Below are positions 1 through 51,506 of a stretch of DNA of 64,000 nucleotides, in pieces. Positions within the stretch are counted from its first letter, which is position 1. Every line of letters starts with the position of its first letter. Both the position numbers and the translations under genes were made by a program. Below the pieces are notes generated by a model. It ran no database searches, had not been told where the DNA came from, and saw nothing but the letters and a program-made list of their open reading frames with translations. This stretch comes from an uncultured bacterium. GTDB taxonomy: Bacteria > Muiribacteriota > UBA6191. The DNA is taken from assembly GCA_964539825.1 (NCBI GenBank), contig CAZIKF010000001.1, forward strand, positions 22,695-86,694, written 5' to 3'.

Positions 1-487
1 CCCCAGGCTCTCTAGTGTATACCTTCCCCACTTTGAGTCCACCATCCAAGATGAGATTAAAGTTCTAAAAAAAGACTTAGAATCTCATGAACATGGTGAA
101 ATTCTGGACGTTCTAACATCACTCGAACAGGTATTTCGAGAAAAAATTCTGCCCAGAAAAAGGGCTTTGGAAGAAAATCTCGACCGATATACAACCACCA
201 ACCAACTAGTCTTGCAAGATGAACTCAAGCACCAGAAAGGACTGCTCCAAGAAGCAGACGGCTTCGATAGACCCTCCATCGAACAGTCCATTCAAAGCCT
301 TGAACAAAAGCGCCTTGCATTGAAAGAAACTGAAGATGAATTGGTCCAATTTTATTCACAGACCCGGATCATTCTTAAACAGATGGAAGAGCTCAGGACG
401 AAACTGGCAGGTCCTTCGGATCCAGGGCAACTACTTACAAGCCTTACAGACGCGAATAACCTGCTCGATGAACTCTCAGAGCTCTAG
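1..487 (+). CDS. 5'-truncated hypothetical coiled-coil protein (C-terminal about 162 aa inside window)
   Basis: Frame 2 is open from position 2 to the TAG stop at 485-487. The ORF track lists only the TTG-initiated part from 167. The translation is heptad-like and charged (…LEQKRLALKETEDELVQ…). No recognisable catalytic motif. Confidence 0.4.
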   Translation, partial: PRLSSVYLPHFESTIQDEIKVLKKDLESHEHGEILDVLTSLEQVFREKILPRKRALEENLDRYTTTNQLVLQDELKHQKGLLQEADGFDRPSIEQSIQSLEQKRLALKETEDELVQFYSQTRIILKQMEELRTKLAGPSDPGQLLTSLTDANNLLDELSEL

Positions 488-3400
488 GAAGGTTGGGAGT
501 TTGTGGACTTGTAGATCTGAAGAGTAGCCATTAACAACAGAATCAACAGCAAGAATTGAAGAATCAGTTTTAACCACATTCCTTCTAACAGCCACCAAAC
601 TGGCGTTAGCGCAATCACGACCATAGTTCTTAATAGTGGGTGAGAACGCAGTACCTGTGCCACAGCAGGTGAATTTCGATAGTAGAAGGAAACAAACTCC
701 CTTCCTAATGCTGATTTTAGCAAGAATTCATCTCGAAACCTGCAAAAACTCTTCACCGCTGGATGCTCCATAGAGCCGAACGAGGCAGTCGCAATAAAGC
801 ATCCTCCCCCTCCTCCACCGCTCACAGTGAATGGAGCCGCAGCAACAACGGCCGTGGACCGGGAAAGCTTCAAAATAAGATCATCATCATCGTCGGTCTT
901 ATTGAGGATTAAGAATGCCTTTGAGCCCTTTGGATTCACAAAGTTTTCCTGGTCAATTCTCTCCACTGCCCTCATAACTGAATCCCGTGTAAAGACTTTT
1001 GCCGGTAGCAGGGGAATGGGTATGATTTTTCCCGTTGACGTGGCTACCCCTTCAGAAATTTGAAACTTCTGGGAGGCTGAACCACCATTGGTAAGGAAAA
1101 AGAGAATCTTCAAAGGGACATCAAAGGGATTTTGGACTGTTAGAAGTTTTCCAACTCGAGCGGGAATCCTCACGACCTGGTCAAGAACAGACTGGTTTTG
1201 TAACTGGCTTTCTAGAGAGGTCAAAACCTGGGTTTCCGGATCGAGTTGAACCTGGGAGTCGGGCGGTGTCTCCAGTCCCACGGTCTCAGTCTGAGGAACG
1301 GTAAAAGAGTCGGAACCGGGCAAGAAGACCTGATCCACCCATAACATTATCTTGAAATTCTGACCTCCTCCGACACCCTCAATCTTCTCCTTTAAAATGG
1401 CTGTTCTGGGGATAACCTGAAAAAGAGTAGCATTACTTCTCAGGTCAAGGGTTCTGAAGGAGGTGGTATATTCGCGAAAGGCTAGTGTATCTTCCGGTTG
1501 TTTAGCCCTTATTTCATGGAGAGGTTCATAGATGTCCCACTCCTTGATCCCAGAGGTAGAGAGAATAGTAGCTGATGACTCCCGCCTGGTAAGCTGGGGT
1601 TGAAACAATGCTTCTTTGAAGGAGGTATAAATGGACCAGGGATCTCGCACAGCTGGGAGACTCTGCTCATCCTGCCCAACCCTTTGAATTTTTGATCTGG
1701 AGAATGCTGCTCTTCGTTCCTGAAAACTTACTGAAGTCTGAGAGAGGCCCTGAAAAACAATCGCAGCGGTCCTGGATATGGAGCCAGACTGCGCCTTTTG
1801 AACAATATAGGTAGTCGTACCCGTCCTTGGGGTTGCCTGACCAAGATCCAGACGACGGGATTTCACTGATGCCGGGTCCGAGTCCACATCCCCATCTTCA
1901 AGATCAAGTTGATCCAGAAAGGGAAAGCTCACATCCGCAGTATTTCTACGGTTTTCCAGAGAAACAAATCCCAGAGAAAAGGTGGTTAAATCCAGACGAC
2001 TTTCCGAATCAGCTCCCTCATCGACAGGAACCTCACCCGCACCGGCATCAGCTGCGCCTGCGTCTCCGCCCCCGGCATCGGCATCGGCAGCCCCGGCATC
2101 GGCGGCTCCAGCATCGGCGGCACCACCGTCCGCTCCGCCCGCATCAACCACTACCTCTTCCTCCTGCTGACCCCCAACCTGATCCGGCTCACGAATAGAA
2201 CGCGTAAAGTTAATCCCCAGCCGATTTCCCGTGCTTAAAAAGGTATCATCCACAGAAGTTATGGAATCAATATCCCTCAAGTTCAAATTTCGTATCTCAA
2301 AGAGTCCAAGCGGAGTTCTGGAGGTGGCCGATGTATCCAGAAAAATCGCACTTCCCATATCGAGGAAGTAATCCGAAAAAGTACGCTCGTCCTGGTTGGG
2401 TAAGGTATTTTGGATCTGGCGTAGAGCCTGATCCAGGGCACATATTTTATCCACGGGTACCAGGCTGTTTCTATCGCAGGTCTGTGAGGTGAAAATATTT
2501 TTTGAAAGAGCATTTCCTTCGAGAGAAAAGGATCGGATCTCGCTCTTGAGGGCTTTGACCAGAAATTCATCTCCCGCGCCTCTGACATTAGCCTCCAACT
2601 GCTCCCATATGTATAAAAAGGTCAGGAATCCCATGGCTGTGGACATTTCCTGCTGGGTAAAGTCTCTCTCCACTGCATCCAGCACCTGGGAAGCCGTGGC
2701 ACCAGCTGCAGGGACTACCGGCGGTCCCAGATCAGGGTGGAAAAGACCTGGAAGGTTGTCAATAAAATCATCTGTAGGCCTGGTGAGCTGATTGTGCGGG
2801 TGTAGATAACGCACAACCGAAAAGGGAATGGCCTGGAGAGCGGAGGAGAAGCTGCTCTGGGGAGAATTAGTACAAATGTCCCGAAAGTCACTTACAGCTC
2901 CACAGGTATTGAATAGAAACTCGGTGGAATTGTCCACGCGAAGCCCTGTTCCAATTCCTATTCTCCCTTGAAGCTCCAGGGATGTGCGGGTAGCGCGAAA
3001 TCCAAGGAAGGCTCCCATGGAGCGATCCAGCCACTTATATTCCCGTACAATATCCCCCGTGGAAATCTTTGTAGAATCAACACTATAGGGATTATGAGCC
3101 TGAAAATTTAACAAGAATTGAAACGCCTGAACAAAGGACTGATAAAAAATGAACTTGTTTCCATAGAGCTTGGCCTGTGTCTTATCGGCAGCCTCCGTCG
3201 GCAGGCCCTGGGTTGGATCTAGAAGCCCTATGTCCATGAAAATTAGATTCCCAAAGTTAGAAACCTCATTGATATTAGAGATTCCCCTGGTTCTGAGTTG
3301 GTCAAAAGGAGCGAAGTATCCCTTTGCCGATAGGGCTGGGGTGGGCGAGCCATCTTCTATGTCATAGAGAAGTACATTTAGAATCAAGCTGTTTTCCTGG

Positions 3401-3594
3401 TTGGAAAAGGGACGCTGCAGAGAAATTCCCTGTATATCCAGGATATTTTGAACCAGGCTTCGCATCGTACCCGCCACTTCCTGTAACTGCGAAGATCGAT
3501 CAGGGTCTGCTGGTGGTGAATTTTGAAAAACCACTGCTCTGGTATGATTGAAAAGGAGGATAATCAGCAGAAACAAGGAAAGAAATTGCTTCAT
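484..3594 (-). CDS. large secreted protein (1036 aa) with a shared C-terminal Gly-rich/CFIATA(S/A)FG/HPxV..RFRDE/TM-helix module; paralog of the downstream 749-aa protein
   Basis: N-terminal signal peptide (MKQFLSLFLLIILLFNHTRA). Shares an internal block with the 3591..5840 protein (LILNVLLYDIEDG…YFAPFDQ versus NILLLDIQDGFEDKGSFVGAHFLPQDQ). C-terminal GGGGGGCFIATASFGSMEHPAVKSFCRFRDEFLLK…YYRNSPAVAQ… is followed by a hydrophobic helix. The central region holds a low-complexity (DAGAA)n stretch. Confidence 0.7.
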   Translation of the reverse strand: MKQFLSLFLLIILLFNHTRAVVFQNSPPADPDRSSQLQEVAGTMRSLVQNILDIQGISLQRPFSNQENSLILNVLLYDIEDGSPTPALSAKGYFAPFDQLRTRGISNINEVSNFGNLIFMDIGLLDPTQGLPTEAADKTQAKLYGNKFIFYQSFVQAFQFLLNFQAHNPYSVDSTKISTGDIVREYKWLDRSMGAFLGFRATRTSLELQGRIGIGTGLRVDNSTEFLFNTCGAVSDFRDICTNSPQSSFSSALQAIPFSVVRYLHPHNQLTRPTDDFIDNLPGLFHPDLGPPVVPAAGATASQVLDAVERDFTQQEMSTAMGFLTFLYIWEQLEANVRGAGDEFLVKALKSEIRSFSLEGNALSKNIFTSQTCDRNSLVPVDKICALDQALRQIQNTLPNQDERTFSDYFLDMGSAIFLDTSATSRTPLGLFEIRNLNLRDIDSITSVDDTFLSTGNRLGINFTRSIREPDQVGGQQEEEVVVDAGGADGGAADAGAADAGAADADAGGGDAGAADAGAGEVPVDEGADSESRLDLTTFSLGFVSLENRRNTADVSFPFLDQLDLEDGDVDSDPASVKSRRLDLGQATPRTGTTTYIVQKAQSGSISRTAAIVFQGLSQTSVSFQERRAAFSRSKIQRVGQDEQSLPAVRDPWSIYTSFKEALFQPQLTRRESSATILSTSGIKEWDIYEPLHEIRAKQPEDTLAFREYTTSFRTLDLRSNATLFQVIPRTAILKEKIEGVGGGQNFKIMLWVDQVFLPGSDSFTVPQTETVGLETPPDSQVQLDPETQVLTSLESQLQNQSVLDQVVRIPARVGKLLTVQNPFDVPLKILFFLTNGGSASQKFQISEGVATSTGKIIPIPLLPAKVFTRDSVMRAVERIDQENFVNPKGSKAFLILNKTDDDDDLILKLSRSTAVVAAAPFTVSGGGGGGCFIATASFGSMEHPAVKSFCRFRDEFLLKSALGREFVSFYYRNSPAVAQVLRSHPLLRTMVVIALTPVWWLLEGMWLKLILQFLLLILLLMATLQIYKSTNSQPS
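2030..2160. repeat. imperfect tandem nucleotide repeat (units around ccggcatcggc[g/a]gc) inside the 1036-aa CDS, encoding (D/G)-A-G-A-A repeats
   Basis: The plus-strand sequence 2041-2150 reads caccggcatcagctgcgcc / cccggcatcggcatcggcagc / cccggcatcggcggctccagcatcggcggcacc. The minus-strand translation is GGADGGAADAGAADAGAADADAGGGDAGAADAGAG. Confidence 0.6.
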
Positions 3595-5840
3595 CGTCCT
3601 CGCCCCCTAAGGACTCTCGCGAAAAAGTAAAATACCAGCAGAAATCCAGTGAAAAAGAGAGGATTCAAAAGTACCAGGGTAAATAGGGTGAGAGGTACCA
3701 ACAAGAGCTGAATAAAGAGCTTTAAAAAAGAGGACTCAGCAATGACCCCGGCCAGTGGCGGAGAAAATAGGTAATAGAGGTTTACAAAGTCCCTTCCTGA
3801 TTTAAATTTCATCAGTATCTCATCTCTAAATCTATTAAGAATCAGAACGATGGGGTGATTCTTAGTACCATAGGCCGCCGTGGCTACAAAACATCCTCCA
3901 GCGCCTCCCCCTGCAATTGCCTGTAGCTGCTCAGCGGTAAGTCCGGCACTAAGCGAACTCGCGCTCTGCCCTAAATCTGAAAATAATTCACTGTCAAATG
4001 CGCTCACAAATAAGGAAACCGTTACCGGTTGAGTATTTTCATTATAAAACGCAATGCGTGAACGGCTTCCTTCTCTTAGTATTACGACCTTCTCATCGGT
4101 TACTGGAACAAGGGAACTAAGGGATGCTAAGGATTCAGAACGGACTTCCAGCGTGATTTGAGTCGTGATGACGCTATCCTCAAGGCTCAGGCTCACTGGA
4201 AAATTAGATGAGTTCTCTATATATAGTTCAAAAATTCCTGCCTGAGAAAGAGTAATGAGGAGATTGGAAGTGGTGCTGCTGGTAGGAACCAGGGAAGTAT
4301 CAATGGGAAAAGGAGTAGCGGGCTCTACCTCTGTTTTTGATACTGTACTTTTAGCAGAATCACTCAGAAAGAGGGAAAAGGGAACCTCCTGGGTGAAGCG
4401 GGATTCAATTTGCTGAATTCTATAATTCCGTGAATCCTGCTCAAGGTTCAGCATAAATACCCATTTTTCCACTCCTGGAGGTAGGAACTCAAAGACCGAA
4501 TCATTTAGGATAATTGTCTCTACTCGGGGATTTCCCGCGGCATCCTTACGCAGAACCTTAACATCTGATTTCCCTATCCCTGAAGGAGCGGAAAAGTGAA
4601 TTTCCCGCTGGGTAGTGCCGGAGGGATTTTCAACTCTTACAATAGAAGGTTGGAAGGCCTGGACGAGGAGAACCGGAGGATCATTTGGATCATCCAACAG
4701 AGGGTATGCAAGAAGATCCAATAGCGGTACCCGGTAAGATTCCAGGTTATATTTTGTTTCTGTGGTAGGTAGCTGTAGAGCCAGAAAATAGTCTTTGTAA
4801 AGCTCTGAAAATGTACCCAGTGCTCGGGAACTCAAAGCCAAATCCAATCCTTCAATTCCATCCAATGGCTGATCCAATATTTCTCGAAACAGGCGGTCTC
4901 CATCACTGACCCTGGATCGAAAATCTCCATCCCCTCTTTGGAAGAGATAGGTAAAGAATAGATAGGAGAAACCACGAAAGTACTCGAAGTCTTTATTATC
5001 CGCCGGCTCCCTTGGGTTTTGAAAAATTCGTACTCTGTCTAGATCACTATCTTTAAAAGGAAATACTGCTCTCATTCGTGTTATGTCCTGCAAGTATGCA
5101 TTCACTTCTACGGGAGAAGCGGTTGGGGCATCTAGAATCTTGCTTGAACTTCTGGGAAAATTTACGGAATTCAAAAAGCGGTAAACGCTATACTGGGAAA
5201 TTCCTTCCTTTACCCAGTTTTCCTCGGTCGAATCTCTCTGGTACTGGATCAGGCGGGAGAGTACACGGGTTAACTCCATATAGGTCCGCCGTTTATTTAC
5301 TAAAGCATGTTGAGCTATTCCCAGGGTTCCCGGATTCAGGTCTACATAGAGAATATTCATGCCATTCCAACCACCGGCAGGGTCTTGATCCTGGGGAAGG
5401 AAGTGAGCTCCTACAAAGGACCCTTTATCTTCAAATCCATCTTGTATGTCTAATAAAAGAATATTGAGTCCAGGAGACTGAGAGCCCGTAACTTCTTGGA
5501 TTTCAAAGAGCGTACCTTCCATGGAAGGTACGAGAACAGATTTCATCCACTCAGCGAAATCATCAAGCACAGACTGACGATCCCCCTCTACAGAAACGGG
5601 ATTAAGGAGCGAATTCAAACCATTGGCGGTCGTACCCTCAAAGAGAGAGTTTTCTACCCAAACGCTTAAATCTAAACCAGGTCTTAGAGTGGCGGTTGCT
5701 CGTACCATTGCGGAGATGGAAAGAACCTGCCCCCGGTCAAAGTCAGGGACATCAAAATCCATTACGGTACCAGAGGGTGCTCCCATTAAAATGGAAAGGG
5801 AACAGCCCAGCACCAGGAATGCCAGTAACAACTTCTTCAT
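3591..5840 (-). CDS. large secreted protein / putative lipoprotein (749 aa), paralog of the upstream 1036-aa protein with the same C-terminal anchor-like module
   Basis: Signal peptide with a lipobox-like LVLGC. C-terminus …AGGGAGGCFVATAAYGTKNHPIVLILNRFRDEILMKFKSGRDFVNLYYLFSPPLAGVIAE… followed by a TM helix and a basic tail (ARVLRGRGR). 4-nt overlap with the upstream gene. Confidence 0.7.
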   Translation of the reverse strand: MKKLLLAFLVLGCSLSILMGAPSGTVMDFDVPDFDRGQVLSISAMVRATATLRPGLDLSVWVENSLFEGTTANGLNSLLNPVSVEGDRQSVLDDFAEWMKSVLVPSMEGTLFEIQEVTGSQSPGLNILLLDIQDGFEDKGSFVGAHFLPQDQDPAGGWNGMNILYVDLNPGTLGIAQHALVNKRRTYMELTRVLSRLIQYQRDSTEENWVKEGISQYSVYRFLNSVNFPRSSSKILDAPTASPVEVNAYLQDITRMRAVFPFKDSDLDRVRIFQNPREPADNKDFEYFRGFSYLFFTYLFQRGDGDFRSRVSDGDRLFREILDQPLDGIEGLDLALSSRALGTFSELYKDYFLALQLPTTETKYNLESYRVPLLDLLAYPLLDDPNDPPVLLVQAFQPSIVRVENPSGTTQREIHFSAPSGIGKSDVKVLRKDAAGNPRVETIILNDSVFEFLPPGVEKWVFMLNLEQDSRNYRIQQIESRFTQEVPFSLFLSDSAKSTVSKTEVEPATPFPIDTSLVPTSSTTSNLLITLSQAGIFELYIENSSNFPVSLSLEDSVITTQITLEVRSESLASLSSLVPVTDEKVVILREGSRSRIAFYNENTQPVTVSLFVSAFDSELFSDLGQSASSLSAGLTAEQLQAIAGGGAGGCFVATAAYGTKNHPIVLILNRFRDEILMKFKSGRDFVNLYYLFSPPLAGVIAESSFLKLFIQLLLVPLTLFTLVLLNPLFFTGFLLVFYFFARVLRGRGR

Positions 5841-12340: not shown

Positions 12341-12607
12341 TTACATCGCGTACATTAAAAGCAGTGCGATCACGAGCGAATAAATCCCCGTGGACTCAGA
12401 AACCGCTTGTCCAATGAGCATTGTCCTGGTTAGAAGGTTTGCCTGCTCTGGCTGGTGAGATATGCCTTCACAAGCCTTTCCAGCCACAAAACCCTCCCCA
12501 ATTCCAGGGCCAATAGCGCCCAGACCCATACAGAGCCCGGCACCAAGGTACTTACAGCCAGTGATAATCGCTTCAGTCATTGCTACTTCATCGCCGGTCG
12601 TTGCCAT
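12341..12607 (-). CDS. atpE: F1Fo ATP synthase c subunit (single hairpin) with Na+-type ligand set
   Basis: 88 aa: …LGAIGPGIGEGFVAGKACEGISHQPE…LRTMLIGQAVSESTGIYSLVIALLLMYAM. Helix-2 E-S-T…Y and a helix-1 Glu at the position of the Na+-coordinating Gln. Confidence 0.9.
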   Translation of the reverse strand: MATTGDEVAMTEAIITGCKYLGAGLCMGLGAIGPGIGEGFVAGKACEGISHQPEQANLLTRTMLIGQAVSESTGIYSLVIALLLMYAM

Positions 12608-12628: not shown

Positions 12629-13387
12629 CTAATTCACTGTATACAGCAGTAATAAAGCCACTACCAGGGCAAACACACACACAGACTGAGCAACAGCCTG
12701 TCCTATTAACATTGTTCTGACGAGGGTGAATCGTAATGTTGGCTTCTTTGCTGTGCCGGCACATGATGATGCCGCAGGTAAACCACACCCAATTCCTGAG
12801 CCTATCGCACCAAGTCCAATCGATAATCCTGAACCTAATAGTGCCATTAATTTAGGCAGTCCCGGATAGACTGAGTAGTCGATGCTTAACAAGAGCAGCA
12901 GTGCAACCACAAGGCCGAAAACGGCCGGATTTCCCGCCACAGCGGAGCCGAGCAGGTGAACAAACTGAACATCACCCTGGGCACTTGGATTTCTTGATAT
13001 ACCCTCGACAGCTTTACTTCCCGTCAGCCCCATTCCAATTCCGCCGCCAATTGCGCCTAGACCCATGGCCAGCCCGCAGGATAATAGCCCCGCAGCCATA
13101 AACCAGAAGTTCTCCGTGGTAACCAAATAGGGAAGCGGTACAAAGAGTAAAAGGCAGGCAACCACCAGGGCAAAAATCGAAGCGGATTCTGTGACTGCCT
13201 GAGTTATGAGCATGGTTCTTAGAATCAATACATCCTGAACGGGTTGGCGCGCCATCCCCAAAACAGCAGAAGTAGCGGACCTAAAGGTACCCAATCCGGC
13301 GCCAATGGCACCAAAACCCATGCACAGACCAGCTGCAAGAAACTTAGCCCCCATCACGATCTCATTAGCATACTCAGAGAAGATCAT
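12629..13387 (-). CDS. fused triple-hairpin c-subunit-like proteolipid (252 aa, 6 predicted TM helices); only hairpin 1 retains the helix-2 carboxylate
   Basis: Three consecutive units, each with a GxGxGxG helix, a polar loop (ARQP / SRNP / AKKP) and a second helix. Hairpin 1 has AVTESASIFALVV, hairpin 2 has AVAGNPAVFGLVV, hairpin 3 has AVAQSVCVFALVV. Located between atpB and atpE. Confidence 0.75.
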   Translation of the reverse strand: MIFSEYANEIVMGAKFLAAGLCMGFGAIGAGLGTFRSATSAVLGMARQPVQDVLILRTMLITQAVTESASIFALVVACLLLFVPLPYLVTTENFWFMAAGLLSCGLAMGLGAIGGGIGMGLTGSKAVEGISRNPSAQGDVQFVHLLGSAVAGNPAVFGLVVALLLLLSIDYSVYPGLPKLMALLGSGLSIGLGAIGSGIGCGLPAASSCAGTAKKPTLRFTLVRTMLIGQAVAQSVCVFALVVALLLLYTVN

Positions 13388-15908: not shown

Positions 15909-17618
15909 TTAACGGGAGCGGAAATTGCGCTCATCCTTCAAGTTTTCCAAGATGATCTTTTTCAAGGCAGGGGATTTTTCAATTTCTTCCCTGGTTACTT
16001 GTTTTACAGTCGGCACAGGGGATGTAGCAGAAGAAGAGGAAGGCGGAGTCTCAACAGGGGGTTGTAAATCCGGCGCGAGTGTCGAAGAGACCGGCTCTTT
16101 GGGAATGACAGGAACCATGACGGTGGGTCTTTTTGATAGCGCTTCCAGGGTATTTGCCTGCCGGTCCATTAACTCTGCTATTCTGGAAAGACGATCTTCC
16201 AGTCTATGAATTCTGGCCAGATTTTTTTCGTTACTCTCCTGTAATAAACTACTGATTTCCGGTTCAAGAATTTTCTGCCTACCCCTCACCTCAGGCTCTT
16301 TGGTCATTTTATCAATGGGCATCACATACACAATTCCCGATGGAGTTTTGGTCCCTGCGCTTTGAGCCTTTTCCTGCAACATCCGTGGAATCTCAGCCAA
16401 TCCAGGCAAATCCAGCCCAGCCCTCATCGGAATGACATACACATGCTCGGCGGGGGTCTCCTGCTTATCCTGCTTTTGAATCATCGCTCCAGACTTCCCC
16501 ACTTGTGCCTTATCAGGAGTAGCAATCGACTGCTTCCTATCAGGCTCCGAGGATCCCGATCTTAATCCGTGAATCATTTCTCTTGATCTTCGTATCTCAT
16601 CGAGAATCTCCTTTTCACGACGAGCTACCTGCTCATAGTATTTTTCTTCAAACCGAATATCTGCCTCAAGATCGAGAGCATCTGAACCCTTTTCACTGAT
16701 TTTCAGTTTGGCTGTATCCAGTTGATTGCGAACCGCGTGCAATGATGCTAACTTCGCGCGAATCTGCCTCACTCTGGATCTCTTCATATGAATCGATATG
16801 AGGTAGTTAATTCTATTGTTGTTCTTATCAATCAATCCAATCCGTCGCTGAACATATTTGAAACTGAGATCCCGACTCTTTTCATGGATCTCCTTTCGAC
16901 GCTCTTCCAAGAATTCGATTTTCTTGTGAATAGACTTCATTTTAGGGTATTCCAATCTCTCGAAGTCCCTCTTTAGTACCTTCTTTTTACGCATAAGGCG
17001 ACGAATCTTTTCTTTGCGCTTTAGAATGAAGTCATCATTGTATCTTGAGGTAGGATCCTCTAAATGAAGATCAATCTCGTCATATAGTCCCTGAATTTTC
17101 GAGCCCACGGAACTTATATCCGTGACTTTGACATTTTTTTCCTTCTCAAGGTCGTCCTTAAGTTTTCTTACCTTTACATGAATGTCTCTGACCTCAGCTC
17201 TTCTCAAAGTCAAAAAGCTCTGAATCTGAGCCTCCAGATCTTTATTGTCGTCCAGTATTTCCAGAATTCCAGGAACACGTTTAATTTCATGAATAATCTC
17301 TTGTTCCTGTGCTGCTATGGCCTGCTTAATATCGGTTAGCTGGCCAACATCTCCCCCTTTTGAGATACTGGTCTTGTGTTTCCAAAAAATAGGTGCGGTA
17401 CTTCGTAATAGATCGGTAACATTCAATATTTCAGGAACTTCTTGAACTGTTGGCCGCTCTTCGTAGGACATTCCCTGGTAGGGATCATTTGCCGTGAAAT
17501 CTTTAGGATCGGGAACTTCATAGACGGTACCCTGGTTAGCGGCAGCTATGGAAAGAAAAAAACCAAGAAAAAGGGATAACGACAAGAGGAAAGTTCTTTT
17601 CCTCAATTCAGAACTCAT
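15909..17618 (-). CDS. secreted coiled-coil-rich hypothetical protein (start reassigned to the internal Met)
   Basis: An ATG at 17618 is preceded by GGAGAAGGAGAG (RBS) and gives the signal peptide MSSELRKRTFLLSLSLFLGFFLSIAAANQ. The track start at 17681 lacks an RBS. The body is Lys/Glu/Arg-rich heptad-like sequence with a C-terminal Pro/Ser-rich segment. Confidence 0.6.
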   Translation of the reverse strand: MSSELRKRTFLLSLSLFLGFFLSIAAANQGTVYEVPDPKDFTANDPYQGMSYEERPTVQEVPEILNVTDLLRSTAPIFWKHKTSISKGGDVGQLTDIKQAIAAQEQEIIHEIKRVPGILEILDDNKDLEAQIQSFLTLRRAEVRDIHVKVRKLKDDLEKEKNVKVTDISSVGSKIQGLYDEIDLHLEDPTSRYNDDFILKRKEKIRRLMRKKKVLKRDFERLEYPKMKSIHKKIEFLEERRKEIHEKSRDLSFKYVQRRIGLIDKNNNRINYLISIHMKRSRVRQIRAKLASLHAVRNQLDTAKLKISEKGSDALDLEADIRFEEKYYEQVARREKEILDEIRRSREMIHGLRSGSSEPDRKQSIATPDKAQVGKSGAMIQKQDKQETPAEHVYVIPMRAGLDLPGLAEIPRMLQEKAQSAGTKTPSGIVYVMPIDKMTKEPEVRGRQKILEPEISSLLQESNEKNLARIHRLEDRLSRIAELMDRQANTLEALSKRPTVMVPVIPKEPVSSTLAPDLQPPVETPPSSSSATSPVPTVKQVTREEIEKSPALKKIILENLKDERNFRSR

Positions 17619-17762
17619 CGCTCTCCTTCTCCATGACAAACGACACAAAACCGAAAGGTTGGCAGCCAAATCCGGTAACATTTAATCCGGGCGTTCCATC
17701 TCCTCTTAACCTGTCGGCAAGAGGGGGCAGGAATGTAATACGACCAGGAAACCGAAAAGGCA

Positions 17763-20519
17763 GTGCCCATCAAAACTCTCACGGAGTATAATGATCCCAT
17801 GACCACCGAGCCCACACTTAATCTCCAAAAAATTCAGACTCTGCTGCATTCTTCTCATATGGATGAACCCATTAAAGCTCTAAAGGAATTAGAGGCATTT
17901 CCCTTAAAAGGGGAAGTTTTGGAAACCTATATCCATATTTTAGATCATGCTCTTTGGAAAGTTCGTAAATTGGCAGCCAGGCGACTAGAACAGGAAATTG
18001 GCATTACTTTCCCGCATGTAGCCAAGTGTATTCTGGATGAAACCGCTGATCGCCGCTACTGGGCTATGCATATTCTTCCCGCCGCGGGTAAAAGAGCTCT
18101 CAAGCCTTTAATGGAAGCAGTCGAGCGCCTGGAACATCCTGAAAACCTCTTCGCATTAAAGGCTCTCTCTAAATTAAAAGAGCCTTCCAGCATCCCCTTT
18201 GCGCTTGAAAAGCTCAAAGACCCAATCTGGTCTGTCCGTAAAGAGGCTTCCGAACTTTTGTGGAATTTAGGATCCCGTTCGATTCAGCCCATGAAAAAGG
18301 CCATTCAGAGTGGAACTGACGATCAGCGATATTGGTGCTTCAAAATTTTGGGACGCATTGGTGGAACCTCTGTTCTCAAAACACTCATGGAAATTCTTGT
18401 CTCTAAGGATTATGACGATAAGGTTCGTTCCTATGCACTGAGTGGAATTCAGGAAGTTCGCGCACCTCAATCGATCCCAATCTTTATCAATACCCTGGAC
18501 TCTGATCTGTGGGTCCTCCGAGCCCAGGCATCGAAAGCATTAATGGAGGCCGGTAGAGATCCCCATCGCGAACTGGTTTTAGCCATGAAGAAAGGTTCTC
18601 GTTCCGTTCGCTACTGGGGAGCGATTGTACTCAAGGAAATAGTGGAGGAAAAGCATACCGCACTCATCGAGCAATTACTAAAAACTCCAGATCTGGATCT
18701 CAGGTTCCACGCAATCTCCATCCTGGGTAAAATCCGCTCCACCTCCGCCGTGGAATTACTCGCGGGAATCCTGACAGATTCCCAGTGGTACTTACGGAAG
18801 CATGCGACAGATGTCCTGATTTCCATGGGACCGGTTTGTGTCGCGCCCCTTGCCACAAGAATTGAAGAGGGCTCTGAAGAAAAGCTGTACTGGATATGTC
18901 AGATTCTGGGGGAGGTGGGACAGCCCACTTGTTTCCATGCTCTTGAAAAACTTGTAAGAACCGGCTCTAAGGAAGTACGTCTATATGCCCTTGAGGCCAT
19001 TGCCTGCATTGGTGGAGATCGAGCGGTTTCTCTATTAATTGAAGCATTCGATAACCAGTCCTGGGTGGTCCGCTCCAGGGCACATGAGTATTTACTTCAG
19101 ATTGGTCCCCCCGCATTTTTACAGCTATTTGAAGGCTTATTAAATCCCGTAGATTCCATGCGTTTCTGGTGTGAAACAACTATTGAGGAATCTGAATATT
19201 ATGGTGCCCGCACCTTGATGAAATTTCTTGGTTCAGGGACCGAGCGTGAATCCCAGGACATTTTAAATCAACTCTCACAGCTAACAGATTCGGTTTTGAT
19301 GGAGCTTTATCAAAACTACTCCCTGAAACCGCAGGATGTCTTGGACAAGCTGTCTATCGCTCAGTCCCTCAATACATCCGCTTTGACCCATTATTCTTCT
19401 GAAAGCGCCAGTCTCGAATTCAGTTTCTTCCAAAAATCTGAGTACCCTTATGAGCAGGTTCAGCGCTTTAAAGAAATTCTTAAAGAGTCTGCGGAATTAG
19501 GAGCAACTCAGCTTCATTTACGCATCGGAACACCTCCCATGGCGCGGGTCGACGGAGTTTTATGTAAATGCGGGTCCAGGACCCTTACTAATCAAGATAT
19601 TCAGGAATTCCTCTCCCCCTATCTAAGTTCTCCCCAGGTCCAGGAATTTCAGCGCGAAGGAACCCTTGGAGTAGACATCCCTTATCAGGAACGCGGGCGA
19701 TTTAAAGCACATATTTTCCGGCAATCCAGGGGAGTTGAGTGTGTGCTGCATTATTCGACAAATACAATTCCTGATTTCCAATCTCTAAATCTTCCCTCAG
19801 ATTTTTTAAGCCATATTGCTAAACTTCCGCAGGGATTGATCCTAATTAGCGGTCCGAACCAGTCTGGCAAGAGTACTTGCTGCATCAGCCTCTTAAGTTA
19901 CATCAACCGCAATTTTGTGAAGAATATTATGACTGTGGAAGATCGCATAGAATACCCATTGCAGAGTGCGAAATCCCTCGTGTCACAAAAGGAGATGGGT
20001 AATGATCTTCACAGTCTGAGCAGTGCTGTTGAATCTCTCTCCAGGGAGGACCCTGATGTAGCTTATCTTGCTCGGATTCCTGAATCTCGCTCCCTTGAAA
20101 CACTGCTGCAGCTTGCCTGTTCCAGAAGCCTTGTGATCGTGGAATGTAATGCGAATTCATCTCGTGAAGCAATTGAGAAGATCTTATATCTATTCCCCCC
20201 GAAACTCTTAAAGGTGTATGAGAGACTCTTCCAGTCAGCGCTCCAGGCTTCGGTACACATCCGTCTTCTCAATAACGCACAAGAATCGGGCCTGGTTCCC
20301 GGGGTTGAGTACTTTCTGAATAATTCCAAAATTTCAGAGTGCCTTTCCATTGAATCTCTTGAAAAGCTCTCACGCGTTTTAAGAAGTTCAAGACAAGAAA
20401 CCAGTGTTTCTCTCGATGATTACCTTATGGGGCTCGCTTCAGAAAAGAAAATTACCTATCAGGAAGCAGTCCGTTTCATGGAGGACAAATCACGGGTGTC
20501 TGTGGATCAGATCTGGTGA
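17763..20519 (+). CDS. HEAT-repeat (PBS-lyase-like) domain fused to a PilT/PilU-family secretion-ATPase domain with degenerate Asp-box and His-box
   Basis: The N-terminal ~520 aa hold repeated …VR..A..AL..IG……L…L.D… units. The C-terminal ~400 aa align to PilT: GATQLHLRIGTPPMARVDGVL, Walker A GLILISGPNQSGKST, TVEDRIEYPL (PilT has EDPIE), SREDPDVAYLARIPE (PilT has DPDIILVGEMRD), and VIVECNANSS (PilT His box is FGTLHT). Confidence 0.75.
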   Translation: MPIKTLTEYNDPMTTEPTLNLQKIQTLLHSSHMDEPIKALKELEAFPLKGEVLETYIHILDHALWKVRKLAARRLEQEIGITFPHVAKCILDETADRRYWAMHILPAAGKRALKPLMEAVERLEHPENLFALKALSKLKEPSSIPFALEKLKDPIWSVRKEASELLWNLGSRSIQPMKKAIQSGTDDQRYWCFKILGRIGGTSVLKTLMEILVSKDYDDKVRSYALSGIQEVRAPQSIPIFINTLDSDLWVLRAQASKALMEAGRDPHRELVLAMKKGSRSVRYWGAIVLKEIVEEKHTALIEQLLKTPDLDLRFHAISILGKIRSTSAVELLAGILTDSQWYLRKHATDVLISMGPVCVAPLATRIEEGSEEKLYWICQILGEVGQPTCFHALEKLVRTGSKEVRLYALEAIACIGGDRAVSLLIEAFDNQSWVVRSRAHEYLLQIGPPAFLQLFEGLLNPVDSMRFWCETTIEESEYYGARTLMKFLGSGTERESQDILNQLSQLTDSVLMELYQNYSLKPQDVLDKLSIAQSLNTSALTHYSSESASLEFSFFQKSEYPYEQVQRFKEILKESAELGATQLHLRIGTPPMARVDGVLCKCGSRTLTNQDIQEFLSPYLSSPQVQEFQREGTLGVDIPYQERGRFKAHIFRQSRGVECVLHYSTNTIPDFQSLNLPSDFLSHIAKLPQGLILISGPNQSGKSTCCISLLSYINRNFVKNIMTVEDRIEYPLQSAKSLVSQKEMGNDLHSLSSAVESLSREDPDVAYLARIPESRSLETLLQLACSRSLVIVECNANSSREAIEKILYLFPPKLLKVYERLFQSALQASVHIRLLNNAQESGLVPGVEYFLNNSKISECLSIESLEKLSRVLRSSRQETSVSLDDYLMGLASEKKITYQEAVRFMEDKSRVSVDQIW

Positions 20520-20600: not shown

Positions 20601-22706
20601 TTATTCGGTATAGAAGGAAGCTGCTTCCGGTAATGCCAGCTCTTCCCATACTGTCCGTATGAGGTATTTTTCCTGGGGACTTAAAGGAACCAGATTTCTC
20701 CCCTGAACCCACTGGTTTGCGTCACGAAATTTTCGTGCTTGGATGTAAAGAATCAGTTGGTACCATGGATTTTTATCCGAAGGATTAATTCTCTCAGCTG
20801 GGTCTGAGATTAAGATCCCAGGGAATTCCCTGAACACCCTTTCTTTAAATAGCTGCTGCAAAAACGTCCCTGAATTTCGAATTTCCCAGTGGGAATTCTT
20901 GCTAAATTCCTCAAAAGACTTCAGGGCACTGCCCTGGAGTTCTCCACTCACCAGCAAAGTTTCAAAAAAACGAAAATCCTCGCCGAGCGAATCCCATTCT
21001 CGAAGTTCACGAATAATTCTGTGAGCTACCCCATCCATACCCTGGTGATAAAACTGAAGAGCAAAACCTTGCCATAGAGTTAAGTCTAGAGGGCGAGCTT
21101 CCCGGGCTAGAACATCATCCACCTGAAGAAAAACCAACTGTTGTCTGAGTTTGTCGAGGTCAACTGTTGACTTGCCTTCAATAGTACCTAAAAATTGCGA
21201 GATCGAGAGACTTGCTGCAAAATTTTTCTTATTGAGGTTTTTAACCCTGGGTAAAAGTCCTGAATAAACAGCTAAACCATCTTCAAGAAAAAGAATTTTT
21301 GCAGCAGGAAAAGTTTTTGAAAATGGAGCTAGAAGAGTTTTAAGGTCCCTGGCCTTATAGGATTTTGCGGTAAAGATCAGAATGCCTCCCGAAAGGCGAT
21401 CAGATAAAAACCGAATCCACTCCGCATATTCTCCTGCCTTCAATATTCTATGAAAGCTCATCGCCAGATAGTTTGGTTTCTTTTTTGACAGTAGATGTCT
21501 GACCTTTGTGCGCGAAATGGAGCCCCTCAATTCTGCCAGATAAAAAGTAGGGTTGAGCTTTTCAGTGCTCGAGCTTTTTTCTAAATCAAACACTCGAACC
21601 GCGTCCCCTTGATCCGCGTCATCCAGTAAATTGAAAAGAATCCAGGGTTTCTCCCCATAGACATCCTCAAAGTGGTCGCTCAAGGAAACTTTGCGGTAAA
21701 GAGTGATTTCACCATTTTGAACTCGGGACAATTGATGAAATTGAAGAAGTTTAGGTTGAGTGCCAGCAACAGACTTCATCAACGCAGCTTCATTAGGAAG
21801 ATGGGTAAGCCCGTAATAAAACACAAAACCAACGAGGCCCATCGCGATCCACGAATGCCCGGAGCCATAAAATATTAGCAAACGAGCGGAAAGAAAAAAG
21901 TGCCACAAAACGATTCTTTGATTGGGACTTTGCAAGTCAAAAAGAGTGCATAGGACCAAAAAAATCAACACGGAAAGAGAAGTTGAAATTCCAGACCTTC
22001 TAATCGGAGGGGAAGGGACCACAAGGCAAACAATCATTGAGCCCACTACCAGGGCACTCATGGCAGGGCTGGGATAAAGTAGAAAAAAGGAGCCCAGTAA
22101 AAATGCATGGAAGAAGGTCCAATCAAAAACCCTACGACTCATTCGCTCCAACCAAAACTTTCTTGGCTTTCCCTCTAAGAACAGAAGAAAAAACGCGCTA
22201 CATCCGGCAAGAACCTCAGGTCGCACACCGGCTGAGAGAAAAACTAAGCCTAATACAACACCAATCCATATTTCCCTCTCTATGGGCCTGCACCGCTTTT
22301 GATTCCTGACAATTTGGGTTTGGCCAAGAAGAAACAAAAAGCCGGCCAGTAAGAGGAACCCGGATAAGACCCAGCCTGTAGTGAAAACCCCCGATATGGC
22401 TAAAAATAAAGCCATCAGGGTGCACAAGGGAAAACCGGGGGACGGCAAAAAACGTGAGTTCCTTAGAGATACATAGAGAAAAGCCCATGGAATCCAGCTG
22501 AAAAAAAGAACTACAAAAAGTATGAAAATGTGGGAACGATGGTATGCCTCCAATAGATAGAACTGTGTCTGTAACAGGTCTAACAGATGAACAAAAAGAA
22601 ACTTCGGAAATCCTGCTAACACAAGAATTAGAGATCCGAGAAAGAAAACTCTACCTACCTGATCGTAAAGGGGATCCTTTTGAAGGGTCCGCTGTACGAA
22701 TAGCAC
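20601..22706 (-). CDS. polytopic membrane protein with a large C-terminal soluble domain (701 aa), function unknown
   Basis: The N-terminal ~350 aa hold 9 or more hydrophobic segments. The C-terminal half is hydrophilic with no recognised motif. Confidence 0.55.
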   Translation of the reverse strand: MLFVQRTLQKDPLYDQVGRVFFLGSLILVLAGFPKFLFVHLLDLLQTQFYLLEAYHRSHIFILFVVLFFSWIPWAFLYVSLRNSRFLPSPGFPLCTLMALFLAISGVFTTGWVLSGFLLLAGFLFLLGQTQIVRNQKRCRPIEREIWIGVVLGLVFLSAGVRPEVLAGCSAFFLLFLEGKPRKFWLERMSRRVFDWTFFHAFLLGSFFLLYPSPAMSALVVGSMIVCLVVPSPPIRRSGISTSLSVLIFLVLCTLFDLQSPNQRIVLWHFFLSARLLIFYGSGHSWIAMGLVGFVFYYGLTHLPNEAALMKSVAGTQPKLLQFHQLSRVQNGEITLYRKVSLSDHFEDVYGEKPWILFNLLDDADQGDAVRVFDLEKSSSTEKLNPTFYLAELRGSISRTKVRHLLSKKKPNYLAMSFHRILKAGEYAEWIRFLSDRLSGGILIFTAKSYKARDLKTLLAPFSKTFPAAKILFLEDGLAVYSGLLPRVKNLNKKNFAASLSISQFLGTIEGKSTVDLDKLRQQLVFLQVDDVLAREARPLDLTLWQGFALQFYHQGMDGVAHRIIRELREWDSLGEDFRFFETLLVSGELQGSALKSFEEFSKNSHWEIRNSGTFLQQLFKERVFREFPGILISDPAERINPSDKNPWYQLILYIQARKFRDANQWVQGRNLVPLSPQEKYLIRTVWEELALPEAASFYTE

Positions 22707-50996: not shown

Positions 50997-51506
50997 TCAG
51001 GCTGTCAGGTTCACAGAATTATAAGATTGAACCTTTGAGCTTTTTTGGATTCTCGAATAGGTTAATTCCTCGGGAAATGCCAGGTCCTTAACAGCCTGGA
51101 TCACCTTTCGTACGATCTTAATCGATACTCCGAGCAATAATTTGTTCCGGTCATTTATCTTACCCAGGTCCCGCGCTAAATCTTTAATTTGAACTTTGAT
51201 TTGCATTAGAGGCTGCTGAAACTCGCCAGCCTCCTGGGCAATCTCATCAAACCCTCGTTCGGAGCATATTTTCCTTCTCCTGGACTCAAGCTCCTGTAAG
51301 AGTGAAACAACCGTTACTTCTTTTTGTACGAGTTGTTGCAAGCTCTTTGGATCTCTATCCTGGGTTTCGGATAAATATACCGCCTTTTCGCGGGCAAATC
51401 CCAGCAGCCTTTCATATTGTTCAAGCTGCGATTCGAGATTTTGATGAACTGCCTTAGCGATTTTCATTTGATTAAGCGCTTTCTTGTCCTCTCTCTCAAA
51501 GGACAA
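50997..51506 (-). CDS. flgN: FlgN-like flagellar export chaperone (tentative)
   Basis: 169 aa helical protein sitting between flgM and flgK. Charged heptad pattern. Assigned mostly by position. Confidence 0.45.
   Translation of the reverse strand: MSFEREDKKALNQMKIAKAVHQNLESQLEQYERLLGFAREKAVYLSETQDRDPKSLQQLVQKEVTVVSLLQELESRRRKICSERGFDEIAQEAGEFQQPLMQIKVQIKDLARDLGKINDRNKLLLGVSIKIVRKVIQAVKDLAFPEELTYSRIQKSSKVQSYNSVNLTA

Follow-up and report, generated by a model that had tools for sequence, protein, structure and literature searches.

Introduction

The closest described systems to the protein presented here are PilT and PilU, the retraction ATPases of the type IVa pilus (TIGR01420; structures 2ewv, 3jvv, 6ojx and 9n32), with which it has in common the complete two-domain fold, the P-loop, the acidic residues of the Asp box and the Walker B Asp-x-Asp. 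Published accounts of this superfamily treat its catalytic Glu, its two arginine fingers and a Glu of the Asp box as completely conserved, and they assign to the His box the binding of gamma-phosphate and cooperativity between chains (PMC5424180; PMC11656802). PilT variants that are defective in ATP binding or in hydrolysis still support retraction that depends on PilU (Adams et al. 2019, PMC6762196), i.e., a PilT fold that does not hydrolyse ATP can have a structural or coupling role. For the other half of the protein, the PBS-lyase-type HEAT-like proteins NblB, CpcE/F and YibA and the alphaRep scaffolds offer a resemblance at the level of the repeat only. On HEAT-PilT fusions, or on naturally inactive PilT paralogues, no paper was found in the literature.

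Here we describe such a fusion from an uncultured bacterium, encoded in a 64-kb stretch of DNA that was analysed as a whole (the window; positions below are counted from its first letter). Its PilT module has kept the fold and the P-loop and has lost the catalytic Glu and both His of the His box, and it probably serves as an ATP-binding scaffold or adaptor.

Results and Discussion

The gene and its product

The coding sequence lies at 17763..20519 on the forward (+) strand and gives 918 aa when read from the GTG at 17763. The ATG at 17799 is the likelier start, as the resulting 906-aa form (P0001) is the version given by most gene callers, and its Met matches the Met of “MNTKP” in P0002 and of “MNNQP” in P0003 in the alignment of orthologues. 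The preliminary description of this locus had read it as a single-ORF fusion, to be abandoned if two genes proved to have been joined by mistake. Because the identical gene was found on 18 contigs from independent samples, and 15 distinct orthologues (43–77% identity) have the same fused architecture with the frame intact over 906–930 aa, an artefact of assembly can be excluded, and the ORF is one real, conserved gene for a cytoplasmic protein of two modules. When contigs were searched with the single fusion protein no relatives were obtained, while a search with the family alignment recovered five MAG loci. MAGs with orthologues include CAZRLV01, CAZYUV01, JAYZAC01, CAZRWM01 and JACFNL01, and P0001 is found on contigs of 344–535 kb. 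An Rfam scan of the window gave no match, and the scan for promoters and terminators around the gene returned counts at or below the shuffled expectation.

The N-terminal module (17823..19358, + strand) is a HEAT-like alpha-solenoid of PBS type, about 510 aa long, with some 30 helices arranged in five super-repeats of about 92 aa, and in each super-repeat a W-x-[VL]-R-K motif is followed 35 aa on by R-[YF]-W. Pfam HEAT_2 matches it in 7 stretches (E 8.7e-43), in agreement with the earlier assignment of the N-terminal ~520 aa to PBS-lyase-type HEAT repeats. The fusion scores far under the equivalog cutoffs of NblB (75 vs. 300), CpcE (41 vs. 330) and CpcF (44 vs. 220), and there is no evidence in favour of a lyase function for the HEAT arm. 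The only PADLOC match on the fusion was the generic HEAT-ARM model, which leaves a reading as a defence system unsupported. A linker (19359..19439, + strand) joins the solenoid to the PilT module and is partly predicted to be disordered, with pLDDT below 50 at residues 534–541 of the 906-aa form; the structure prediction gave a pTM of 0.50 for the full-length fusion vs. 0.83 for the ATPase module alone.

The PilT module consists of an N-terminal, PAS-like domain (19440..19790, + strand), where “ATQLHL” stands for ASDIHL of PilT and “GRFKAHIF” for GRFRANVF, and of a RecA-like C-terminal ATPase domain (19791..20516, + strand). T2SSE (PF00437) is found by Pfam at aa 680–809 with 53.6 bits, above the gathering threshold of 24.9, and the NCBIfam model pilT_fam (TIGR01420) is aligned over positions 2–340 of its 343 at aa 569–908, with 219 bits that do not reach its curated cutoff of 319.1. 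Aquifex PilT (2ewv) aligns with the module end to end (E 2.4e-48), so the earlier claim that the C-terminal ~400 aa align to PilT over their full length is borne out. The AF2 model (pLDDT 92.3) has the two-domain PilT fold, and Foldseek superposes it on PilT4, PilU and PilT with TM scores of 0.86–0.89, the range obtained for 6ojx, 6ojy and 5fl3. The identity to PilT and PilU is nevertheless only 24–31%, and the fusion differs from them also by the added N-terminal 510-aa solenoid and by the lack of pilus genes nearby.

Catalytic motifs

The catalytic motifs were compared in a census of 15 members of the clade to which the fusion belongs and 67 comparators, the latter made up of 35 stand-alone PilTs and 32 other HEAT-PilT fusions. 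The Walker A motif, or P-loop, GPNQSGKST (aa 697–705; 19851..19877, + strand) is present as first reported and fits GxxxxGK[ST], and its Gly, Lys and Ser/Thr are retained in all 15 clade members. The Asp box reads VEDRIE (aa 725–730; 19935..19952, + strand); the preliminary description gave its letters (EDRIE) correctly but went too far in calling it degenerate, since the one change is that of Pro to Arg, and the acidic residues (Glu, Asp and Glu), with the glutamates that coordinate Mg2+, all remain here. Across the clade the Asp-box Glu-Asp and the Walker B Asp-x-Asp are kept, while the last Glu of the box is kept in 8 and lost in 7 of the 15 members.

The Walker B region REDPDVAYLARIPE (aa 761–774; 20043..20084, + strand) is atypical, with the Glu replaced by Arg771, the preceding Gly by Ala and the Arg of GEMRD by Pro; it can be seen that DPDVAYLARIPE within this stretch has AR in place of the GE of GEMRD. 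The catalytic Glu position, which follows the atypical Walker B (hhhhGE), is occupied by Arg (9) or Lys (6) in the whole clade, and by Glu in 66 of the 67 comparators. The Gly before it, present in 67/67 comparators, has given way to Ala or Ser in 15/15 members of the clade, and the GEMRD Arg is Pro in every clade member and Arg in every comparator. In the His-box region CSRSLVIVECNAN (aa 786–798; 20118..20156, + strand) Ser789 stands in place of the first His, Glu794 in place of the Thr and Asn796 in place of the second His, so that the fusion has SRS...ECNA where PilT has TGHLVFGTLHT. The first His is lost in all 15 clade members (kept in 66/67 comparators), the second is Asn in 14 of them (His in 60/67) and the Thr is Glu in all 15 (Thr or Ser in 67/67).

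The altered catalytic Glu region and the loss of His from VECNAN had both been noticed before, and both stand: a profile alignment that scores the catalytic residues, which had been proposed as a check, finds the Glu and the two His absent and not conserved, and the His are gone clade-wide from positions that are near-invariant in the 67 comparators. According to the alignments, the losses extend beyond those first listed, to the Arg of GEMRD, the RFR arginines, the AIRNLIRE motif and the Asp of SDxH in the N-domain, which is replaced in the fusion. The RFR motif of the N-domain, whose arginines we take to be the published arginine fingers, reads RFK in the fusion, and these arginines are kept in 3/15 and 4/15 clade members vs. 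67/67 comparators each. AIRNLIRE is typical of the PilT C-terminus and was reportedly found to be important by Aukema et al. in 2005; its position (20322..20348, + strand) reads NSKISECLS, with KISECLSI standing opposite AIRNLIRE in the alignment with Aquifex PilT. In comparison with PilT and PilU, the fusion has thus replaced the catalytic Glu, the GEMRD Arg, both His of the His box, the second Arg of RFR and AIRNLIRE.

Family and evolution

Besides the orthologues, no fewer than 30 clusters at 50% identity have the fused architecture, and judging by their sequences HEAT-PilT fusions are a broad, undescribed family whose catalytic sites are mostly intact. The phylogenetic distribution, another check named at the outset, shows the degenerate clade nested within this family. 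The preliminary description had tied the fusion to the degeneracy, and this has to be given up, because the fusion is ancestral and its catalytic sites are in most cases intact. The intact fusions (e.g., P0180, P0181, P0185 and P0187, and from the P0013 cluster the Vicinamibacteria protein MBP6701897.1) have the same architecture as the clade, and the nearest of them also the same super-repeat motifs and a colinear HEAT domain; unlike the clade, they keep all of the catalytic motifs. The family profile aligns in one stretch over approx. 10–897 of P0180, P0181, P0185 and P0187, and the HEAT domain of the clade is colinear with that of P0180 (31% identity, E 4e-75) and also with those of the other three.

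Because of the very long branch of the clade, which made it the outgroup under midpoint rooting, the NJ tree of the ATPase domain was uninformative, and the HEAT domain was used for phylogeny instead. Bootstraps of an NJ tree built on the HEAT domain support the monophyly of the clade (100/100) and the intact P0180 as its sister (99/100). The intact relatives are 41–48% identical to one another in the ATPase module and 23–30% in the HEAT part; between the clade and these relatives the values are 23–32% and 24–34%, respectively, while within the clade the ATPase module is again 42–61% identical. With such low identity between the clade and its relatives and high identity within the clade, the ATPase module has changed in a burst and has afterwards come under purifying selection again. 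A second degenerate lineage (P0206 and P0211) has a HEAT domain colinear with that of the clade and has likewise lost the catalytic Glu and the His box, but its substitutions are unlike those of the clade (Arg for the Walker A Lys, Asp for Glu, Arg for the second His). As none of 100 bootstraps of the HEAT-domain tree grouped it with the clade, its loss of the catalytic residues was an independent one.

Genomic neighbourhood

Directly downstream and convergent with the fusion lies a gene for a 701-aa protein (20601..22706, – strand), for which a TM scan gives approx. 8–10 TM segments (aa 16–310) and a soluble C-terminal part of about 390 aa. Its homologue takes the same place in 8/8 non-identical loci, with the 3′ ends 2–81 bp apart or overlapping, and it is still adjacent in L006 and L007, despite the break in atp and dcw synteny there. 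This protein is the only stable gene neighbour of the fusion and a possible candidate for its partner; as the two genes are convergent, they are not co-transcribed. The divergent gene upstream (15909..17681, – strand) encodes 590 aa with an N-terminal membrane anchor and is conserved as a neighbour of the fusion in most of the loci: L004 (with two extra genes in between), L005 and L008–L011 have a homologue, L006 and L007 have none. The flanking proteins of 701, 590 and 346 aa have no significant match in Pfam, NCBIfam, PDB or PADLOC, and for the 701-aa protein a profile built from nine orthologues gave none either. Judged by AtpD, the nearest sequences (79–92% identity) are those of MAGs, in part labelled Cloacimonadota/Cloacimonetes by their submitters, and a second tier, at 74–75%, includes named Silvanigrellales isolates among many other sequences.

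Pilus genes are absent from the 64-kb window and from 10 kb past each of its ends (approx. 84 kb), which extends the earlier observation that none lie nearby, and they are also absent beside the intact relatives in L013, L016 and L017. On a Vicinamibacteria contig (L014) an intact HEAT-PilT fusion is directly followed by a stand-alone gene for a 359-aa PilT-like protein.

Proposed function and its alternatives

The fusion is, in our view, probably a PilT-like scaffold or adaptor that binds ATP and does not hydrolyse it, and not a force-generating motor. Its ancestor would have been a catalytically intact HEAT-PilT fusion, in whose descendants the P-loop was kept while the catalytic Glu, the GEMRD Arg, both His and, for the most part, the RFR arginines were replaced, several of the replacements being now fixed themselves (Arg or Lys for Glu, Pro for Arg, Glu for Thr and Asn for His). 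The invariant P-loop fits a module that still binds nucleotide, and this module is predicted to hold ATP with hydrolysis that is nil or very slow. It would probably assemble into a PilT-like ring, from which the HEAT solenoids, each tethered by a short flexible linker, may reach out as arms that hold partner proteins. ATP binding, the loss of hydrolysis, the formation of a ring, the scaffold role and the identity of the partner are all what we infer. At the sequence level the original idea of a catalytically impaired PilT paralog is upheld, since the Glu and both His are lost clade-wide; the nucleotide-binding scaffold or regulator proposed along with it is a role that the fusion may have. The precedent set by Adams et al. 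concerns ATPase-defective variants, engineered or natural, that differ from a canonical PilT by point changes and belong to a pilus system already known, whereas the clade is natural and long-diverged, carries a HEAT arm and has no known pilus context.

Among ASCE ATPases the strand that carries the catalytic Glu varies from family to family. Glu794 and Asn796, invariant or nearly so on the strand beside Walker B, could in principle rebuild an active site, with Glu794 as catalytic base and Asn796 as a sensor-1-like ligand of gamma-phosphate, and the fusion would then be an active ATPase with a rewired site. The fixation of Thr to Glu (15/15) and of His to Asn (14/15) indicates new constraints and not decay, the P-loop, the Asp-box Glu-Asp and the Walker B Asp-x-Asp are all in place, and five fusions that are intact in other respects (e.g., P0010 and P0011) already have Asn for the second His. 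However, where the catalytic Glu once stood all 15 members have a positively charged Arg or Lys, the RFR arginines are mostly lost, the last Asp-box Glu is missing from 7/15 and the GEMRD Arg is Pro throughout; with so many independent elements lost, efficient hydrolysis is hard to reconcile with the data, and we hold this reading to be unlikely. Decay to a pseudogene, or an artefact of assembly or gene calling that joined two genes, has hardly any credibility: the altered motifs, and nothing else, would speak for it, and it is ruled out by conservation, namely the intact frames of the orthologues, the identical gene on 18 contigs, the invariance of the altered positions and the fused architecture of the further clusters.

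The scaffold could also be linked to pili, as an inactive ring that sits on the pilus platform or is co-assembled with active PilT/PilU and regulates or recruits the motor. The PilU-dependent retraction supported by catalytically dead PilT variants (PMC6762196) is consistent with this, and the arrangement in L014 resembles a pilT-pilU pair; as no pilus gene was found within approx. 84 kb of the fusion or beside the intact relatives named above, and the PilT-specific AIRNLIRE motif is lost, we regard a pilus adaptor as possible but doubtful. It is improbable, too, that the fusion is the cytoplasmic part of a pilus-independent membrane system together with the adjacent polytopic protein of about 700 aa. 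Their adjacency in all eight non-identical loci, including the two with broken synteny, argues for it, but the loci come from related genomes, so that it may be mere inherited synteny, the genes are convergent and not co-transcribed, and the membrane protein matches no known family and evolves faster (22–52% identity vs. 43–77% for the fusion). To go further, the degenerate PilT ring, the HEAT arms and the membrane protein of about 700 aa might together form a new pilus-independent, membrane-associated machine, in which a motor was turned into a switch or sensor that only binds ATP, and the family would have produced such a switch twice independently from active HEAT-PilT ancestors; this is speculative, and we give it a small chance.

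Conclusions

With only the P-loop kept, the clade is a natural, conserved exception to what has been reported (PMC5424180, PMC11656802) as universal, namely the catalytic Glu, the His box and the arginine fingers, and it suggests that a PilT fold may persist for purposes besides work driven by hydrolysis. With it an apparently unstudied HEAT-PilT family is brought to light, in which catalysis appears to have been lost at least twice, and its matched active and inactive relatives offer a direct test of a non-turnover PilT ring and of binding by the HEAT arm. If the fusion is indeed linked to the membrane protein, an uncultured lineage of bacteria would have a membrane-associated system that is new.

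Catalytic Motifs of the ATPase Module

The functional columns were read from an alignment of the ATPase modules of the degenerate clade (the fusion protein and its orthologues, 15 sequences) with those of 67 comparators, 35 of them stand-alone PilTs and 32 HEAT-PilT fusions from outside the clade. In the clade the P-loop is held constant while the catalytic apparatus is replaced. The Walker A Gly, Lys and Ser/Thr (GPNQSGKST, aa 697–705) and the Walker B Asp-x-Asp are kept in 15/15, and the Glu-Asp of the Asp box in 14/15 (Glu) and 15/15 (Asp), as they are in the comparators. The catalytic Glu, present in 66/67 comparators, is Arg in nine members of the clade and Lys in six; the Gly before it (67/67) is always Ala or Ser, and the Arg of GEMRD (67/67) is always Pro. 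The Walker B/catalytic Glu region of the protein reads DPDVAYLARIPE (GE to AR), and its His box CSRSLVIVECNAN, where PilT has TGHLVFGTLHT. The first His of this box (66/67) is gone in all 15, the second (60/67) is Asn in 14, and the Thr (Thr or Ser in 67/67) is Glu in every case. The RFR arginines, each found in 67/67 comparators, are retained in 3/15 and 4/15, the last Asp-box Glu (67/67) in 8/15, and the Asp of the N-domain SDxH motif (66/67) is Gln in 14/15. From these counts it follows that the apparatus was replaced partly by new fixed residues. Structural work found the catalytic Glu, two arginine fingers and one Asp-box Glu completely conserved in the superfamily, and assigned to the His box gamma-phosphate binding and inter-subunit cooperativity (PMC5424180, PMC11656802).

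All motifs quoted in the preliminary description are present where it placed them, and its loss of the catalytic Glu and of the His-box His extends to the whole clade. It had also called the Asp box degenerate; in this protein the box is altered (EDRIE), but every acidic residue is kept, so Pro to Arg is the sole change there.

Gene Structure and Orthologues

The reading frame at 17763–20519 (+) is open for 918 codons from a GTG; most gene callers start at the ATG at 17799, which gives a 906-aa product (P0001, 100% identical), and NCBI MBT3786062.1 is the 918-aa form, annotated as a TadA-type pilus ATPase. Pfam assigns seven stretches of HEAT_2 (E 8.7e-43), with HEAT_PBS and HEAT also matched, and T2SSE at aa 680–809 (53.6 bits, above the threshold of 24.9). 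The PilT/PilU model TIGR01420 of NCBIfam is matched over positions 2–340 of 343 at aa 569–908, and Aquifex PilT (2ewv) is covered over its full length (E 2.4e-48). The HEAT solenoid has a higher-order period of five units of about 92 aa, in each of which an R-[YF]-W motif comes 35 residues after a W-x-[VL]-R-K motif. No transmembrane segment is predicted in the protein. The identical gene occurs on 18 contigs from independent samples, and the protein databases and GTDB genomes yielded 15 distinct orthologues (43–77% identity, each 898–930 aa), all in the fused form, which speaks against the artefactual joining of two genes.

Origin of the Degenerate Clade

A family profile searched against 1.84 billion cluster representatives scored the clade above 1000 bits and retrieved below it a tier of 800–950-aa proteins aligning in one stretch near full length, including P0180, P0181, P0185 and P0187. 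Their sequences have the HEAT-PilT architecture too, and in them the ATPase motifs are all canonical. The fusions retrieved form at least 30 distinct clusters at 50% identity, one annotated as Vicinamibacteria, and make up a broad family in which canonical motifs prevail. In its HEAT domain the protein runs colinear with P0180 (31% identity, E 4e-75), as it does with P0181, P0187 and P0185; remoter fusions match this domain only out of register. The nearest stand-alone PilTs are just 29–31% identical to the protein.

Neighbour-joining on the HEAT domains makes the clade monophyletic (100/100) and sister to the intact P0180 (99/100), and two other altered fusions, P0206 and P0211, group with it in 0/100; an ATPase-only tree was uninformative because of the long branch of the clade. 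P0206 and P0211 have a Walker A of GxxxSGR[ST] (Lys to Arg), Asp for the Walker B Glu and Arg for the second His, and are a second HEAT-PilT lineage that degenerated independently. The HEAT tree and this differing pattern argue that the fusion is ancestral and, by predicted catalytic sites, mostly active, with catalysis lost at least twice. Identity among the intact relatives is 41–48% in the ATPase and 23–30% in the HEAT domain, between them and the clade 23–32% and 24–34%, and within the clade 42–61% and 37–49%; these rates favour a relaxation of the ATPase module and then new constraint. Searches of the literature turned up no account of the HEAT-PilT family, nor of PilT paralogues that are naturally inactive.

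Outside the window, P0200, P0204, P0231 and P0315 each join two PilT modules in tandem and have no HEAT repeats; the copies of P0315 read 'MGEMKE...GILVFGEQV' and 'ISELPD...GRLVIATVPG', neither of them canonical.

Genomic Context

The window is ordinary chromosome of a diderm, flagellated bacterium, with an atp operon, a dcw/ftsQAZ cluster, flgK, flgN, lpxA/C/D, skp, fur and prfA. Its closest AtpD matches (79–92% identity) include MAGs labelled Cloacimonadota by their submitters, and the next tier (74–75%) has named Silvanigrellales isolates among its matches. As first reported, pilus genes are lacking nearby: none lies within the 64 kb or 10 kb past either end. Over eight non-identical loci the sole always-present neighbour is the convergent gene immediately downstream (20601–22706 in the window), whose 3' end either overlaps the fusion or is 2–81 bp away from it, and which is present even at L006 and L007, two loci that have lost the atp and dcw synteny. 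It encodes about 630–750 aa with about 8–10 transmembrane segments and a soluble part of about 390 aa, and has no match in Pfam, NCBIfam, PDB or PADLOC, profile search included. The divergent upstream gene, for a 590-aa membrane-anchored protein, is kept at most loci, not all. The intact relatives at L013, L016 and L017 have no adjoining pilus genes; the exception is a Vicinamibacteria locus (L014 10001–15623), where the next genes directly after an intact fusion are a stand-alone 359-aa PilT-like one and one for a Ser/Thr kinase, a layout that resembles a pilT-pilU pair.

In the atp operon one gene (12629–13387, −) codes for a 252-aa c subunit of three fused ATP-synt_C hairpins (PF00137 three times), with the ion-binding Glu in the first only ('AVTES'; then 'AVAGN' and 'AVAQS'), adjoining an ordinary 88-aa c subunit (12341–12607, −) whose site, GQAVSESTGIYSLVIAL, we take to be a Na+-type signature. 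The pair, kept at L004 and L005, looks like the hybrid rotor of Acetobacterium woodii but differs by a 6-TM c subunit with a single carboxylate. A 2048-aa Flagellin_N protein (42306–48452, −), a giant flagellin or FlgL-like, adjoins a 799-aa FlgK (48473–50872, −) and FlgN (50997–51506, −). Two adjacent proteins of 1036 and 749 aa (484–3594 and 3591–5840, both −) have no Pfam domain; a CFI-box-CTERM domain (NF041770, 80 and 75 bits) forms the end of each. Just upstream of window position 1, a 964-aa protein (L019 13854–16748) with a faint HEAT_2 match and an adenylate/guanylate cyclase domain would be another HEAT-fused signalling protein; just beyond the window end, on the same contig, lies a gene (L018, from 10926) for a giant protein, over 5900 aa long, with FG-GAP and Laminin_G domains.

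Proposed Function and Naming

The invariance of the P-loop supports ATP binding by the PilT-fold module, and the loss of the catalytic base, of the gamma-phosphate-sensing histidines and, mostly, of the arginine fingers argues against hydrolysis. We think it probable, with some reserve, that the module binds ATP without a useful rate of hydrolysis; its role may be that of a scaffold or adaptor that binds nucleotide, and the HEAT arms would hold its partners. An impaired PilT serving as a nucleotide-binding scaffold or regulator had been proposed at the outset: the losses are indeed fixed and the P-loop kept, while the role is read from sequence. A precedent for a non-hydrolysing role comes from PilT itself, whose variants with impaired binding or hydrolysis of ATP still sustain retraction that depends on PilU (PMC6762196). 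In the clade, Arg or Lys at the old Glu position always goes with the Glu that has newly arisen on the adjacent His-box strand, and in P0206 and P0211 the charges are reversed (Asp on Walker B, Arg at the His position), which suggests that a salt bridge may fill the former catalytic pocket.

A site rewired yet active, using Glu794 and Asn796, would accommodate the new fixed residues, but the missing base and histidines tell against hydrolysis, and we regard it as improbable. Unlikely, too, is a pilus-linked adaptor serving a motor encoded elsewhere, no pilus gene lying in the 64 kb or the 10 kb to either side. A pilus-independent system formed together with the constant membrane-protein neighbour is about as doubtful as the rewired site. 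That the gene is a pseudogene or artefact is refuted by its conservation and deserves practically no credence.

Public annotations name the protein a PilT retraction ATPase. By sequence it is PilT/PilU-like and PilT/PilU-derived; unlike PilT/PilU, it does not reach the TIGR01420 cutoff (219 bits against 319) and lacks the catalytic Glu, the His box, the RFR arginines and the AIRNLIRE motif, and therefore it should not be filed under that name. It belongs among the HEAT-PilT fusions, a family that has no name. Pseudo-enzymes are common; a conserved PilT, dead as judged from its residues, among active HEAT-fused relatives and with a second independent loss, makes a clean natural experiment.
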